A stretch of DNA of 24,464 nt from an uncultured Bacilli bacterium (GTDB taxonomy: Bacteria > Bacillota_I > Bacilli_A > RF39 > UBA660): NCBI GenBank assembly GCA_947586295.1, contig CANPXQ010000001.1, positions 1 through 24,464 on the forward strand. Reading direction: 5' to 3'. Both the position numbers and the translations under genes were made by a program. The notes under the pieces are model-generated. The model was not told where the DNA came from. It made no database searches and saw only the letters and a program-made list of their open reading frames with translations. This document shows positions 2,073-14,163 of this stretch, one piece after another. Every line of letters starts with the position of its first letter. The first letter of the stretch is position 1.

Positions 2073-3869
2073 ATGAAAAAAAAGTTTTTATTAATAATTA
2101 AAACATTTTTAACTATATTGGCCTTCACTCTTAATTTAACTAATAGTAAAGATATTATTAATATTAATAATCCCTTAAAAGTCAGTGTCATTTTTATTAT
2201 AATTACAAGTATCTTTTTTTATCTTTATTACCAAAAATATCAAAAATTAAATTTAAAAGAACCATTACTATTTAAATTATTAGCCTCTATTTATAGTATA
2301 TTTATGCTTATAGGGAATAGTTATAAAGCTGTCGGTAACTACTCTTTAATATTGGGAAATTATAAAGTATTTTTAATTTCTATATTAATGTTTTTAGGAT
2401 ATTATTTCTTATTTAGTAGTTTAATTACTTTTATATATGAAGAATTAAAAAAGAAAAAGTTTAAAAAAAAAGATCATAAATTAATAGATTTTGTCTTTAA
2501 TAAACATCCTTTTCTAGCGACTTTTTGTCTACTATTTTTACTATATTTACCCTATTTAATTGCCTATTATCCAGGTATTATATCTCCTGATCCAAGTTTT
2601 CAAATTGAACAATTTCTAGGAATTAAAACCAAATATAGTGATTATAATATTATGTTAGATGAAAACGTAACTATAACAAACCATCATCCTGTTTTACATA
2701 CTCTTATAATTGGTTCTTTTGCTAAATTAGGAATAAAAATAGGTTCTTTTAATTTAGGAATATTTTTTTATACCCTTATGCAAACCATCGCTCTTATTTC
2801 ATTATTTAGTTATATTATCTGGTATTATAAAAAAATAAATACTCCTTTAACTATTAGAATTATTACTTTATTAATTTATGGTTTAGTGCCTGTTTTTCCT
2901 TTTTATGCCGTATCGACAGTTAAGGATGTCTTTTTTACCATCTTTGTTATTTTATATATTATTCGTTTATTTGATTTAATAAAATTTCAAAACTTTAATT
3001 GGCAAAATTTATTTATTTTAACTATTTTAATGCTTTTAATATCTTTATTTAGAAATAATGGTATTTATCTAGTAATAATGTCTTTTCCTTTTTTATTCGT
3101 AGCTTTTCCAAAAAAAATATTAAAACTATTAGTTACTTTCTTAATACCTATAATAAGTTACTATAGTTTTACGAATATTCTTCTTCCTTATTGGAAAATA
3201 ACGCCAGGCAGTATAAGAGAAATTTTATCAATTCCTTTTCAACAAACGGCAAGATACGTAAAATATCATAATGCTGATGTTACTGATGAAGAAAAAATAA
3301 TAATAGATAAAATATTAGAATATGATACTTTAGCTACACGTTATAAACCAAATATTGCAGACCCAGTTAAAAACAAGTATAATAAATATAGTACCAATGA
3401 AGATTTAAATAATTATTTTCAAGTATGGTGGAATCAATTTCAAAAACATCCTGGTACTTACATTAATGCTACTTTCGCTAATACATATGGTTATATTTAT
3501 CCGGATACTCATAGTTGGTATATATATAATAAATTTTATCCCTATTTAAATGATGTAGGTATACCATATCATTATAATAACTTAGATACTTGGCGAAATA
3601 TACTTTATTATTATGGTTCAGCTTTTCCTTATATTCCCGTTATTGGATTACTTGTAAATATTGGATTTGCTACTTGGCTATGGATGTTAATTTTTACATA
3701 TATTATTAAATTAAAAAAATACAAATATTTAATAATTATATGTCCCGTTATTTCTCTTATACTGGTTTGCTTTGCAAGCCCCGTTAATACTTATTTTCGC
3801 TATACTTTAGGTTTTGTATTTTCAATTCCCTTAATTATGGCGATTTTCATAAATTTATTAAAGGAGTGA
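2073..3869 (+). CDS. Polytopic membrane protein, DUF6020-like; probable GT-C (GtrC-type) glycosyltransferase
   Basis: Many TM segments, YYPG..SPD and NHHPVLHT motifs, large external loop; directly upstream of GT2 and GtrA genes. Confidence 0.65.
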   Translation: MKKKFLLIIKTFLTILAFTLNLTNSKDIININNPLKVSVIFIIITSIFFYLYYQKYQKLNLKEPLLFKLLASIYSIFMLIGNSYKAVGNYSLILGNYKVFLISILMFLGYYFLFSSLITFIYEELKKKKFKKKDHKLIDFVFNKHPFLATFCLLFLLYLPYLIAYYPGIISPDPSFQIEQFLGIKTKYSDYNIMLDENVTITNHHPVLHTLIIGSFAKLGIKIGSFNLGIFFYTLMQTIALISLFSYIIWYYKKINTPLTIRIITLLIYGLVPVFPFYAVSTVKDVFFTIFVILYIIRLFDLIKFQNFNWQNLFILTILMLLISLFRNNGIYLVIMSFPFLFVAFPKKILKLLVTFLIPIISYYSFTNILLPYWKITPGSIREILSIPFQQTARYVKYHNADVTDEEKIIIDKILEYDTLATRYKPNIADPVKNKYNKYSTNEDLNNYFQVWWNQFQKHPGTYINATFANTYGYIYPDTHSWYIYNKFYPYLNDVGIPYHYNNLDTWRNILYYYGSAFPYIPVIGLLVNIGFATWLWMLIFTYIIKLKKYKYLIIICPVISLILVCFASPVNTYFRYTLGFVFSIPLIMAIFINLLKE

Positions 3870-3873
3870 AAAA

Positions 3874-4803
3874 ATGAAAAAAATTGCAGTTTTAATACCT
3901 TGTTATAATGAAAGTAAAACAATTGAAAAAGTAATTAAAGATTACAAAAAAGCGTTGCCGGATGCCGATATATATGTATATGATAATAATTCGACAGATA
4001 ATACTGATAAGATAGCGAAAAAAGCCGGAGCTATTGTTCGTTATGAATATCGCCAAGGAAAAGGTAATGTCATTAAAACAATGTTTAAAGATATTAAGGC
4101 TGATTGTTATTTAATGATTGATGGCGATGACACTTATCCCGCGGAAAACGCTCGGGAAATGTGTGATTTAGTATTAGAAGGAAAAGCAGATATGGTTATT
4201 GGCGATCGTTTATCAAGCACTTATTTTGAGGAAAATAAACGTCCTTTTCATAATTTCGGAAATAGTTTAGTTCGTTTTTTAATTAATAAGATTTTTAAAA
4301 ATAATGTTAAAGATATAATGACCGGCTATCGAGCTTTTAGTTATGAATTTGTCAAAAGTTTTCCAATTATTTCCAAAGGTTTTGAAATAGAAACCGAAAT
4401 GACTATTCATGCCGTCGATAAAAATTTTAAATTAAAAGAAATTCCTGTTACCTATCGTGATCGACCAAAAGGGAGTATTTCTAAACTAAATACTTACTCT
4501 GATGGTTTTAAAGTTCTAAAAACAATTGGTATTCTATTTGCCGAATATAAACCTTTAATGTTTTTTAATATTTTAGCGCTTATGTTCTTTATTATAACTT
4601 TATTTTTAGGTATACCACCATTTATAGAATATTTTAAAACAGGATTAGTATTAAGATTCCCTAGTTTAATTGTAGCATCTATTTCTTTAGTAATTGCTAT
4701 ACTTTTATCTATTACGGGAATAGTTTTACAAATAATAAACAAAAAACATAGAGAACTTTATGAATTATATTTATTAAGTATAGGTGAAGCAAATGATAAA
4801 TAA
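3874..4803 (+). CDS. GT2 polyprenol-phosphate glycosyltransferase (GtrB / DPM1-like)
   Basis: VLIPCYNE, VYDNNSTD, IDGDDTY (DxD), GFEIETEMT; two C-terminal TM helices. Confidence 0.9.
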   Translation: MKKIAVLIPCYNESKTIEKVIKDYKKALPDADIYVYDNNSTDNTDKIAKKAGAIVRYEYRQGKGNVIKTMFKDIKADCYLMIDGDDTYPAENAREMCDLVLEGKADMVIGDRLSSTYFEENKRPFHNFGNSLVRFLINKIFKNNVKDIMTGYRAFSYEFVKSFPIISKGFEIETEMTIHAVDKNFKLKEIPVTYRDRPKGSISKLNTYSDGFKVLKTIGILFAEYKPLMFFNILALMFFIITLFLGIPPFIEYFKTGLVLRFPSLIVASISLVIAILLSITGIVLQIINKKHRELYELYLLSIGEANDK

Positions 4804-11718: not shown

Positions 11719-12450
11719 TTATTTTTCTATCAAATCACTACTATACCAATAATATTTTCCGTTTTCCATTTTAAAAGTATGTTTATATTTTACCAATTTA
11801 TCTGGTTTCGTAATCTTTTCATTTTCATATTTTACATTATTATTTTTCATAGTCATTCGCTCATCATTAAAACATTCTTGAGTCTCTTTATTACATTTGC
11901 CAAAATAATCATAAATAACTAATTCTTTATTACTATTTATTTCAAAACCATCAAGGCTATGATATACATAATATTCTTCTTTTTCAATATTATCATTATA
12001 AATAGATATTATTTCAGTATCTTCATTATAGATAGCTTTTAATTTATTATCTATTCTAAAATCTAAATAATAAATATTTACATTATTGCCAAATATCGTA
12101 TGAATGGCATCATTAAAGTCATTTATAGGTATTTGTGCTACTTCTTCTTCAAGATGATCATTATTAATAACTATTTTATTATTATCTTTTAAATAATTAT
12201 AAGCCGTAATTAATATATGTTCATAGCTTAAATTATTATATTTAGTAAAGTATCCATTATAGAATCCATACTTTTCGGCATATTTATTTACATATAAATT
12301 TTGATATATATTATTTACTTCACTTTCAGAAATATTTTCTTTCTTTTCCCTATTTCCTTCAAAATTAAATAGCTTAAAGAAAATAAAAATAATTAAAATT
12401 ACCGTAACAGCTACAATTAAAATCATTACCGTTTTTTCTTTCTTTGGCAT
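11719..12450 (-). CDS. Hypothetical protein with N-terminal membrane anchor (start ATG 12450 or GTG 12459)
   Basis: Long ORF, N-terminal hydrophobic helix, SD AGGTGA; candidate promoter TTGTCT(12496-12491)-N17-TACTAT(12473-12468). Confidence 0.75.
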   Translation of the reverse strand: MPKKEKTVMILIVAVTVILIIFIFFKLFNFEGNREKKENISESEVNNIYQNLYVNKYAEKYGFYNGYFTKYNNLSYEHILITAYNYLKDNNKIVINNDHLEEEVAQIPINDFNDAIHTIFGNNVNIYYLDFRIDNKLKAIYNEDTEIISIYNDNIEKEEYYVYHSLDGFEINSNKELVIYDYFGKCNKETQECFNDERMTMKNNNVKYENEKITKPDKLVKYKHTFKMENGKYYWYSSDLIEK

Positions 12451-12483
12451 TACTATCACCTATTTTTATAGTATCAAAAAATA

Positions 12484-12511
12484 ATAAAAAAGACAAGTTA
12501 TTTAACTTGCC
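12484..12511 (-). terminator. Terminator of the 12760-14163 gene, built on the downstream repeat copy
   Basis: Minus strand GGCAAGTTA-AA-TAACTTGTC followed by TTTTT. Confidence 0.75.
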
Positions 12512-12525
12512 ACAATAGGTCGACA
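12500..12525 (+). repeat. 26-bp direct repeat, copy 1 (intergenic)
   Basis: ATTTAACTTGCCACAATAGGTCGACA, identical to 12758-12783. Confidence 0.98.
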
Positions 12526-12758
12526 TGTAGGTTTGTCAAACATATGTGACAGCGTATATGGTTGGCAAACCTACACTGTGCATTTTATCTTCTTTGCATA
12601 GACATTATGCCGAGAAAACACTAAAAGTTAGGCAAGTTATGATATAATTTTTTAATTTGCAGTATTATTTGCTGCCTTTCTGCAAATCAATCATAACTTG
12701 GGTTCCTGACTTTTAGTGGCAAATTGGAATATTGTCACACTTCTATGTAAAATGCACA
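12526..12758. mobile_element. 233-bp non-coding, highly self-complementary insertion (MITE/REPIN-like or structured ncRNA)
   Basis: Hairpin 12526-12575 plus rod 12577-12758, both starting TGT and ending ACA; boundaries coincide with the direct repeats; no meaningful ORF. Confidence 0.6.
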
Positions 12759-12783
12759 TTTAACTTGCCACAATAGGTCGACA
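12758..12783 (+). repeat. 26-bp direct repeat, copy 2 (last codons and stop of the 12760-14163 gene)
   Basis: Identical to 12500-12525; encodes CRPIVAS-stop on the minus strand. Confidence 0.98.
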
Positions 12784-14163
12784 CGTATATCCTTTACTAG
12801 TATAATATGTTCCTATTTCACTATAATTAGTTGGAAAAGCATTATTCCCAGATTCCATATCCAATGTTTCTTTTGGTAAATCAGCTTTTATAGTAATTGT
12901 ATAATTAGCATCATCATAAGTAGCAGTACCGGTAATATTATTATAAGTTAATACACTATCTTTATTTACAGCTACAGTATTATATTCTTCTAAAGTATCA
13001 AATTTAAATGTATATAACCGATATGCATAATTTATATATTGATAACCATTACCACTTTCTTCATTAGCTCCCATAGCAATAAAATCAGTAGTAGTATCAT
13101 TGGTGCAACTTAAATATAATTTTATTGGGGTTTGTAAAACTATCAATTTAGAAGTAACTATACCTTGTTTACCTGAAGCACTAGTTACCGAAATATTAAT
13201 TTCATATTGACCAACCGCAAGAAGATAACTAGATATATTAGTATCAGCTTGAGCAAAAGCATAGGTACATTCTTCTTCGCTACAAGAATCTTCAACAATG
13301 AAATCTTCAGCTTTAAATTCTCGAGTTTCATTTAAACTAGCGAATACTTCTTTGGCTGTTGCTGTAGGGACATTATTGTTAATTATGGTTACATTACCAC
13401 GATGCGTTACTCCATCATTACAAGTAATAGAATATTCATAAGTACCTTCTTTATTAATATTAACATTTGTCGTTATTAAATTACAATTTTTAGAATCTGT
13501 ACCACTTATAGTAGCATAATCATTTATATTAGTAGATAAAGGCGTATTTATTGGTAATTCTAAATTATTTGTCTTAACATCAATGTTCGATTTTTTACCA
13601 CTTGCAGTTTTACCTAAAGATAAATAATAATAAACACCATAAGCAATAGCTCCCAGTAGAACAACAATTAGAATAATAAATAAAACTTTATTCATTGGTT
13701 TTTTCTTATTGCCATTATTAGAATTTTGAGGTACTTCAACTCCCATATTTTCAACTTTTTTGGCTTCAACAAAACCATTACTATTACTATTTACATTGGT
13801 ATTAGCACTATAACTCATTGTTCCGGGTATAGGTTGAGGATAAGGTTCATAATTCATTGACCCATTTTCCAAATTATTATTAGTTGTATTAGTATTAGCA
13901 GTATTCACTGGGTTTTGATTAGCCACATTTGTCTCAGGCGTTATATTAGTTGCTAAAGTTGGATTAACTGGATCATTTAAACTTTCTTCAGCCACAGGCG
14001 TTGGTATAGGGTTAACTCCCCCATTATTCAAAGAAGGGTTTACAGGTTCAGTTTGAACACCAGTATTCACCACAGTTGGTTGTGGGTTTTCAATAGTACC
14101 CAAAGATGTCGAATTTAAGGATTCGACATTAGAATTTTGATTATTTTGATTTTCATTATTCAT
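12760..14163 (-). CDS. Type II membrane surface protein: N/P/T-rich disordered N-terminus, one TM, probable Ig-like extracellular repeats
   Basis: ~155 aa low-complexity N-terminus, TM VLFIILIVVLLGAIAYGVYYYL, beta-rich repeats (GTYEYSITC, GQYEINISVT) with paired cysteines. Confidence 0.7.
   Translation of the reverse strand: MNNENQNNQNSNVESLNSTSLGTIENPQPTVVNTGVQTEPVNPSLNNGGVNPIPTPVAEESLNDPVNPTLATNITPETNVANQNPVNTANTNTTNNNLENGSMNYEPYPQPIPGTMSYSANTNVNSNSNGFVEAKKVENMGVEVPQNSNNGNKKKPMNKVLFIILIVVLLGAIAYGVYYYLSLGKTASGKKSNIDVKTNNLELPINTPLSTNINDYATISGTDSKNCNLITTNVNINKEGTYEYSITCNDGVTHRGNVTIINNNVPTATAKEVFASLNETREFKAEDFIVEDSCSEEECTYAFAQADTNISSYLLAVGQYEINISVTSASGKQGIVTSKLIVLQTPIKLYLSCTNDTTTDFIAMGANEESGNGYQYINYAYRLYTFKFDTLEEYNTVAVNKDSVLTYNNITGTATYDDANYTITIKADLPKETLDMESGNNAFPTNYSEIGTYYTSKGYTCRPIVAS

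Follow-up and report, generated by a model that had tools for sequence, protein, structure and literature searches.

A probable ssoA/palA-type single-strand origin at the end of an IS481-family insertion sequence and its derived MITE in gut Bacilli

A short mobile element in the genome of an uncultured Bacilli bacterium very probably carries a single-strand origin of the ssoA/palA type, judging by its motifs, its fold and its likeness to plasmid origins. The element was found in a stretch of 24,464 nucleotides (the window; contig CANPXQ010000001.1), where a first-pass annotation had pointed out a rod-like structure of 182 nt as a candidate structured RNA. The rod does not stand alone as an RNA gene but forms the left-end module (12577–12758) of a 233-bp MITE (12526–12758), which comes from a 1.2-kb insertion sequence (IS), most likely of the IS481 family, and the putative origin is the core of the rod (12605–12731, + strand). 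This core most likely functions as single-stranded DNA and not as a transcript. The ssoA is a known DNA signal; what is unusual, and recurring, is its context at the end of an IS481-family IS and its MITE, and a literature search returned no description of an sso as part of an insertion sequence.

Structure of the rod and likeness to plasmid origins

All five helices that had been folded by hand were recovered in place. The closing stem of the rod joins 12577–12587 to 12748–12758 (11 bp, TGTGCATTTTA/TAAAATGCACA), followed inward by 12597–12601/12743–12747 (CATAG/CTATG), 12619–12632/12705–12718 (14 bp, one G-T included), 12633–12643/12690–12700 (CAAGTTATGAT/ATCATAACTTG) and 12655–12662/12680–12687 (ATTTGCAG/CTGCAAAT). 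Comparison with shuffled sequence, which the annotation had proposed for both strands, favours the rod on each: the minimum free energies as RNA are −60.9 kcal/mol (z −7.7) for the + strand and −56.4 kcal/mol (z −7.2) for the − strand, with 0 of 200 shuffles equal in either case. The minimum-energy fold holds four G-U pairs in the rod and three more in the adjacent hairpin 12526–12576.

The homologues used for covariation were 19 distinct copies with a mean column identity of 71%, and their consensus structure has 45 pairs. Paired cells amount to 96.6%, against 37–41% when the partners are slid by one to three columns, and both sides have changed in 20 of the 45 pairs, against 3–6 after sliding; none of 500 shuffles matched these values. 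The closing stem 12577–12587/12748–12758 itself covaries (both sides changed in 6 of 11 pairs). Compensatory changes thus preserve the helices in diverged copies, as the first reading had expected of a genuine structure, and the rod is real and selected. Arm-to-arm correction of a palindrome in DNA could act as a selection-free source of apparent covariation.

The preference for the + strand noted earlier is backed by the wobble cells across the homologues (63 G-T vs. 6 A-C on the + strand) and by the fold energies, both of the consensus (−34.0 kcal/mol on the + strand vs. −29.0 on the −) and of the window core folded as single-stranded DNA (−27.0 kcal/mol, z −6.1, vs. −23.6, z −4.6). Since the structure was predicted on the + strand, the wobble asymmetry is supportive, not decisive. 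Both flanking ORFs lie on the − strand, so the + strand is antisense to them, as had been stated.

The stems vary among the 19 copies, and three features are nearly or fully constant: TTATGCCGAG-AAAA (with T at the gap position in one copy and C in the last run in another), a bulge G together with the two pairing C's 3' of it, and A(A/T)TTGGAATA. The core is composed of the RSB motif, two covarying helices, a GGTT bulge (12701–12704, + strand), a variable apex (12644–12689, + strand) and the 3' arm. The RSB motif (12605–12618, + strand, TTATGCCGAGAAAA) stands at the foot of the 5' arm and is a 14/14 match; the published RSB is 5'-TTATGCCGAGAAAATTT-3' (PMC4598088), and the window reads TTATGCCGAGAAAAC at this place. 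The TTATGCCGAGAAAA is common to all 19 IS copies, the palA of pT181 and the IS-free copies. Its imperfect partner is the 3'-arm motif AAATTGGAATA (12721–12731, + strand), in which AATTGGAATA (12722–12731) is invariant in seven aligned sequences, six from gut-Bacilli contexts and one from pT181, and the A at 12721 varies (two IS copies and the IS110-type copy have C). By alignment, a GGTTCC bulge is common to the window copy and pT181, in register.

A covariance model, R2, was built solely from the IS copies. It matches pT181 at 3772–3925, directly after the mob gene (33.9 bits, E 3e-6), with model positions 30–161 aligned to palA; we take this stretch to be the position of palA, the pT181 record having no sso annotation. 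The model also matches plasmid-like contigs of Streptococcus suis, S. mitis and Staphylococcus (33–49 bits) and Rep-adjacent copies (68–69 bits), always on one strand. The exact pattern of the two motifs occurs in at least 120 stretches of species-representative genomes, many of which are small contigs of Staphylococcus, Salinicoccus, Macrococcoides and Streptococcus. A blastn search of the PLSDB plasmids with the rod gave short chance matches only, BLAST being too insensitive for a 14-nt motif plus structure. One defining feature of such origins, the motif CS-6 (5'-TAGCGT-3'), is absent from the apical loop of the window copy, where it would be expected (TTTGCAGTATT), whose apex is TTTGCAGTATTATTTGC; a 5/6 match to it (TAGCAT, TAGCTT, TAGCTA or TAGCCT) is found in 9 of the 19 IS copies, and pT181 has TAGCGA at this position.

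The RSB has been described in the palA/ssoA of pT181 and also in ssoU, ssoT and ssoW, and the ssoA of about 160 nt folds in single-stranded form, is recognised and primed by RNA polymerase and is active in one orientation only (PMC5703833; PMC4595007). With the ssoA/palA of pT181, pE194, pMV158/pLS1 and pSELNU1, the window core has in common an imperfect palindrome of about 130–160 nt with the RSB low in the 5' arm and, judging by wobble pairs and fold energies, a favoured strand; with that of pT181 it also has in common the AATTGGAATA 3' arm, the GGTTCC bulge and the covariance-model match. In contrast to plasmid origins, it lies within an IS or MITE in the chromosome, its closing stem is built from the terminal repeat of the IS, and CS-6 is missing from the window copy.

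The rod had also been compared with 6S RNA in size and layout. This likeness is functionally apt, because ssoA hairpins too are bound by RNA polymerase as promoter mimics and template a short RNA (PMC5703833, PMC4595007). Hairpins of this kind and 6S RNA are alike in size, in a rod with internal loops, in open-promoter mimicry and in a short product RNA, but the rod has no sequence or model match to 6S RNA, is multicopy and mobile, and most likely has DNA as its active form. The search for 6S or any other Rfam family, with E up to 10, left the rod with a best E of 2.7 among snoRNA and miRNA noise (E 2.7–8), and the true 6S RNA of the genome lies elsewhere (C22:2882–3062, − strand, RF00013, 53.9 bits). 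Identity as 6S RNA was therefore rejected and the layout suited to RNA polymerase binding retained. A single-strand origin is active only in one orientation and in the form of folded single-stranded DNA, which would explain both the strand asymmetry and the resemblance to 6S RNA.

The MITE, its parent and other carriers of the core

The 233-bp MITE (12526–12758, + strand, 5'-TGTAGG...GCACA-3') is a non-autonomous IS481-family derivative: it has no transposase, and both of its ends match full-length elements of 1.2 kb. It is flanked by a 25-bp target-site duplication, the left copy of which (12501–12525, TTTAACTTGCCACAATAGGTCGACA) overlaps an arm of the terminator hairpin 12492–12511, and the right copy of which (12759–12783) includes the stop codon (12760–12762, − strand) of the ORF 12760–14163. 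At 12526–12554 (+ strand, read as TGTAGGTTTGTCAAACATATGTGACAGCG) lies the right terminal inverted repeat of the parent IS (IRR), whose − strand carries, 8 nt from the tip, a TTGACA that faces outward. An inverted copy of the IRR tip (12562–12575, + strand, TTGGCAAACCTACA) pairs with 12526–12539, and the resulting 51-nt hairpin 12526–12576 is the remnant of the deletion of the transposase gene. The single C at 12576 (+ strand) is the spacer between this copy and an inverted copy of the left-end tip (12577–12587, + strand, TGTGCATTTTA), which pairs with 12748–12758; the junction ACA-C-TGT is present in every copy examined. The left terminal inverted repeat of the parent (IRL) occupies 12733–12758 and reads TGTGCATTTTACATAGAAGTGTGACA on the − strand, and in full-length copies its positions 9–14 are TAnAAT, facing inward. 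One alternative of the first-pass annotation, a MITE with 11-bp terminal repeats, was thus right in the type of element and wrong in its limits, since 12748–12758 is a true terminal-repeat tip and 12577–12587 is an internal inverted copy.

The source MAG (G000) has 879 kb in 120 contigs, each of at least 2.5 kb, with 26% G+C. A second, identical 233-bp copy (C3:11898–12130) has a different 25-bp duplication, and further copies interrupt the contigs C8/C90, C9/C100, C17 and C110. The paired contig ends C8/C90 and C9/C100 have flanks of 24–25 bp in common, as expected for insertions that split the assembly. In three other species of the genus, MITE copies of 72–97% identity each have their own duplication of 25–26 bp; the MITE insertions with duplications of 25–26 bp are those at C1, C3, C8/C90, C9/C100, G012, G013 and G027. 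The element is mobile and generates target duplications of 25–27 bp.

The same ends bracket a transposase of 310 aa in G035:C60 and in many MAGs of gut Bacilli and 'Tenericutes' from rabbit, goat, mouse and human. The best NCBIfam family of this protein, by far, is NF033577 (IS481; 209.3 bits, below the cut-off of 224), and its matches to the Pfam families rve, rve_3 and HTH_29 pass their cut-offs. Read along the transposase gene, the 1.2-kb parent has the left terminal repeat TGTGCAnTTAnAATAGAAGTGTGACA, the rod core, the inverted left-tip copy (11 nt), one base, the inverted right-tip copy (16 nt, TGTAGGTTTGTCAAAC), a stretch of about 45 nt that includes a ribosome-binding site, the transposase gene and the right terminal repeat ending ...GTTTGACAAACCTACA; its right end is ...CAAACCTACA and its left end TGTGCA..TAnAATAG. 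This order puts the rod after the left terminal repeat and ahead of the transposase gene; the rod has one and the same orientation in 19 of 19 IS481-type copies. The transposase gene of full-length copies is located between the two repeats that match 12526–12539 and 12562–12575. Perfect duplications of 25–27 bp are found at the outer ends in 11 of 16 full-length copies and in none at the inner repeat, which places the rod inside the IS. In the window MITE the transposase gene and its flanks have been deleted, and the + strand of the rod is antisense to the absent gene. An IS30/IS1630 parent, suggested by the long duplications, was ruled out by the transposase family, and a REP/RAYT origin of the 51-nt hairpin by its arms, identified as the IS481-type repeats found on either side of the transposase gene in full-length copies.

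TGT...ACA ends with duplications of about 25 bp have been recorded in the IS481/IS1202 group, and discrete duplication lengths of about 5, 15 and 25 bp for IS481, IS1202 and IS481EU (PMC10045372; bioRxiv 10.1101/2022.12.17.520857). For IS481 proper, ISfinder gives duplications of 2–15 bp, whereas the present clade has 25–27 bp, and its left end adds to the pattern of IS481, IS1202 and IS481EU a single-strand origin and an internal inverted copy of both termini. The palindromic MITEs Correia/NEMIS, RUP and ERIC are likewise short, multicopy, hairpin-forming and intergenic, and are likewise mobilised in trans by a related transposase; in contrast to them, the hairpin of the window element derives mostly from a replication origin with plasmid homologues, not from terminal repeats.

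The core is not restricted to IS481 elements. A model search across the genus found it (model positions 30–163; similarity hits only) in settings without IS481 ends: directly past the stop codon of an IS110-family transposase (NF033542, 221.6 bits), in the neighbourhood of a tyrosine integrase and a replication gene with Rep_OBD, between genes of three species in what is presumed to be a tRNA region, and at other sites. Homologous cores adjoin Rep_OBD and integrase genes (L143, 69 bits), Mob_Pre (five loci) and RepD/Rep_trans (L294); this Rep/Mob association holds for the homologous cores and not for the window copy, a chromosomal MITE. Among 80 loci examined, the transposase-type neighbours were two of IS481 type, five of IS110 type, one of IS3 type (OrfB) and one of IS21 type (IstB), with five HTH_38 proteins as putative further cases. 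Next to IS110-family transposases, which are mutually 36–100% identical, the core starts 7–16 nt past the stop codon.

Some elements do not have the core. Intact IS481-type copies without it are L061, L064 and L065, one of which has a fresh 25-bp duplication, and the core was probably lost through central deletion of the palindrome. As intact copies of both the IS481 and the IS110 type exist without it, the core is dispensable. The origin, though dispensable, is an integral part of elements of the IS481, IS110 and other IS families, and the MITE has retained it.

Several further occurrences were observed. The IS110-family elements with an ssoA-like hairpin come from gut Bacilli and Clostridia (L160–L172, L215, L255, L268, L286 and L310), and the hairpin lies about 170 nt inside their right end (...TTGACACATTATAGTTGGTCTC); L173 and L174 have no hairpin though they are close relatives, and L165 has a mini version. 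Hairpins of the ssoA kind also stand 3–21 nt from ORFs with HTH_29/HTH_28 or HTH_38 domains only (L246, L247 and L285, of 466–469 aa, L279, L295 and L320), and these neighbours may be diverged IS1202- or IS30-like transposases.

Possible roles of the origin

From what is established for such origins, the + strand would fold into this hairpin once single-stranded, and the host RNA polymerase would bind the RSB as a promoter mimic. On the folded sso the polymerase would produce a short RNA that primes synthesis of the complementary DNA strand. The relatives of IS481 presumably transpose by copy-out-paste-in, a route that circularises and displaces one strand of the element, which then has to be converted to the double-stranded form. 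Circular or abutted-end intermediates are used by IS481, IS110, IS3, IS21 and IS30.

The origin may therefore act in cis during copy-out-paste-in transposition of the IS and its MITE, which is the role we tentatively prefer. Its task would be to start the second strand on a + strand that has been displaced or circularised. The fixed orientation in all 19 IS481-type copies counts for such a role. The MITE lineage retains the hairpin with compensatory changes, and as a MITE needs only cis-acting sequences, this retention counts for a role in cis. Furthermore, the same origin recurs at IS110-family transposases and beside IS3-type and IS21-type genes. No single-stranded intermediate was observed, and a circle or tandem junction (right end, 0–30 nt, left end) was not found in metagenome contigs holding seven element copies, a collection so small that the missing junction is uninformative.

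If the two termini are joined through a 1-nt spacer, the segment 12562–12587 (inverted right tip, one base, inverted left tip) complements them exactly. Such a segment could serve as a splint and keep both ends of the single strand side by side. With the TTGACA 8 nt from the right tip and the TAnAAT at positions 9–14 of the left end, a 1-nt spacer would give a junction promoter with a spacing of 17 bp.

The IS481-family context hints at a single-stranded DNA stage for the family. It is more doubtful, though possible, that the IS481 clade and other hairpin-bearing, circle-forming IS of Firmicutes would all pass through a single-stranded circle whose second strand is primed by RNA polymerase at a built-in origin; the families meant are IS110, IS3, IS21 and perhaps IS30. 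Second-strand synthesis in copy-out-paste-in transposition is poorly understood, and a conserved, orientation-fixed origin at an IS end offers a testable handle on it, which predicts the displaced or circularised strand, the start of priming and the involvement of the host RNA polymerase. A known parallel is ICEBs1, also a chromosomally integrated mobile element with a plasmid-type, orientation-specific single-strand origin; however, ICEBs1 replicates and transfers through single-stranded DNA by a relaxase-driven rolling circle, whereas the carrier in the window is a DDE transposon for which a single-stranded stage is only proposed.

A serious rival to this role is that the origin is a passenger without any part in transposition, either a selfish palindromic cassette that settles in harmless non-coding parts of IS elements or a cargo that pays only when the IS or MITE reaches a rolling-circle plasmid or a conjugative element and supplies it with a host-adapted origin. 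This is quite possible, given that the core is dispensable and that neither a junction nor a single-stranded form has been seen. The core is optional in both IS families and occurs in many unrelated contexts, including sites beside presumed tRNA genes and beside housekeeping genes. Presumably, IS110-family elements move as double-stranded circles, and these would have no need of such an origin. Moreover, sso modules are known to be shuffled among plasmids, and the RSB was originally defined as a recombination site (PMC5703833). A passenger does not readily account for the orientation relative to the transposase, which is fixed within each IS family, nor for the compensatory upkeep of the hairpin in a chromosomal MITE lineage, where a benefit at the plasmid level cannot act. 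Its recurrence in IS481, IS110, IS3, IS21 and perhaps IS30, all families of circular or abutted-end intermediates, also speaks against it. That the MITE copy is instead a decayed origin, an inert palindromic remnant kept by recent descent and arm-to-arm correction, is unlikely: CS-6 has been lost in the MITE subfamily, a relative (G027:C47) has a central deletion and mini versions exist, but the RSB and the 3' arm are invariant, the bulge and the helices are kept across copies of 70–80% identity, and the copies of the source genome are identical and recently mobile.

It is quite improbable that the rod works as a transcript, be it a 6S-like polymerase decoy, an antisense or leader RNA on the transposase or a stabilising 3' UTR, even though both strands fold strongly as RNA. 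Read-through on the − strand is likely, the terminator of the upstream gene lying beyond the MITE, and in full-length copies the rod lies between the −10 box of the left end and the transposase start, so that it would be part of a transcript from the junction promoter. A contig of 305 nt from an RNA library spans the whole MITE at another locus (depth 2.7), but it is strandless, possibly DNA carry-over, and hence uninformative. Against a transcript stand the lack of an Rfam family, the separate 6S gene and the favoured strand, which is antisense to the transposase and to both neighbours and whose internal promoter-like site has no conserved −10. The invariant motifs of the rod are exactly those of a plasmid DNA origin, and we know of no such RNA from plasmids with this origin. 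The remaining alternative, a bridge, seek or guide RNA that directs insertion in the manner of IS110, had been raised in the first-pass annotation as a guide or bridge-type scaffold and is very hard to believe. The same core does occur in the non-coding end of 'RNA-guided' IS110-family transposases (NF033542, 221.6 bits), and 9 nt of the insert are complementary to the duplicated target at the window site. However, identical MITEs sit in five unrelated targets and the complementarity (p ~0.03 here) is missing at the other four (0/4), the loops stay constant while the stems vary, contrary to what programmable guides would show, the transposase of the parent is a DDE enzyme, and the core is optional in IS110 elements; the scaffold was rejected on these grounds.

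Whatever the role of the origin, ssoA hairpins range well beyond plasmids, and in the annotation of gut Bacilli MAGs they can be mistaken for new RNA genes. A MITE with a host-adapted origin may also alter the host range or stability of recipient plasmids.

Insertion site and further repeats

In the window, the MITE sits between the stop codon of an ORF of 467 aa (12760–14163, − strand), for which no Pfam match was found, and the terminator hairpin of this ORF (12492–12511). Through the target duplication, the stop codon and one terminator arm are now present twice, so the gene retains its stop and its terminator has been displaced by 233 nt. As the terminator is now beyond the MITE, the − strand of the MITE is probably transcribed as a 3' UTR. 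A hybrid promoter-like site (12512–12539, − strand) combines the TTGACA of the MITE with TATTGT of the flanking duplication (16-nt spacer, 10/12 matches) and points at the ORF 11719–12459, with the old terminator intervening. An outward promoter at the internal junction was considered and rejected; its −35 is good, and its −10 is without the conserved final T in nearly all copies.

Eleven contig ends of the source MAG are 83–90% identical to the MITE ends (C55, C2, C44, C33, C77, C59, C101, C63, C62, C21 and C105). They probably represent a second, full-length IS481-type subfamily, whose body of 1.2 kb is below the 2.5-kb contig cut-off of the MAG. The end of C6 and the start of C61 stop within ...TAATGCGACTTTATGCCGAGAAAAC, an sso-bearing repeat that is not the IS481 MITE and resembles G074:C26. 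Palindromes of 43 nt, consisting of the IS left-end tip and its inverted copy only (TGTGCAGTTATAATAAATGTTACACATCTATTATAACTGCACA), are identical in three species at unrelated loci (G006:C19:905–947, G025:C18:4706–4748 and G022:C15:415–457), without obvious target duplication. Elsewhere, L143 (G017:C23, 1346–3053) and L144 are integrated elements of rolling-circle type, in which the ssoA (69 bits) precedes a structured leader, after which come a Rep_OBD gene and a tyrosine integrase, with large surface or phage-like proteins encoded upstream.
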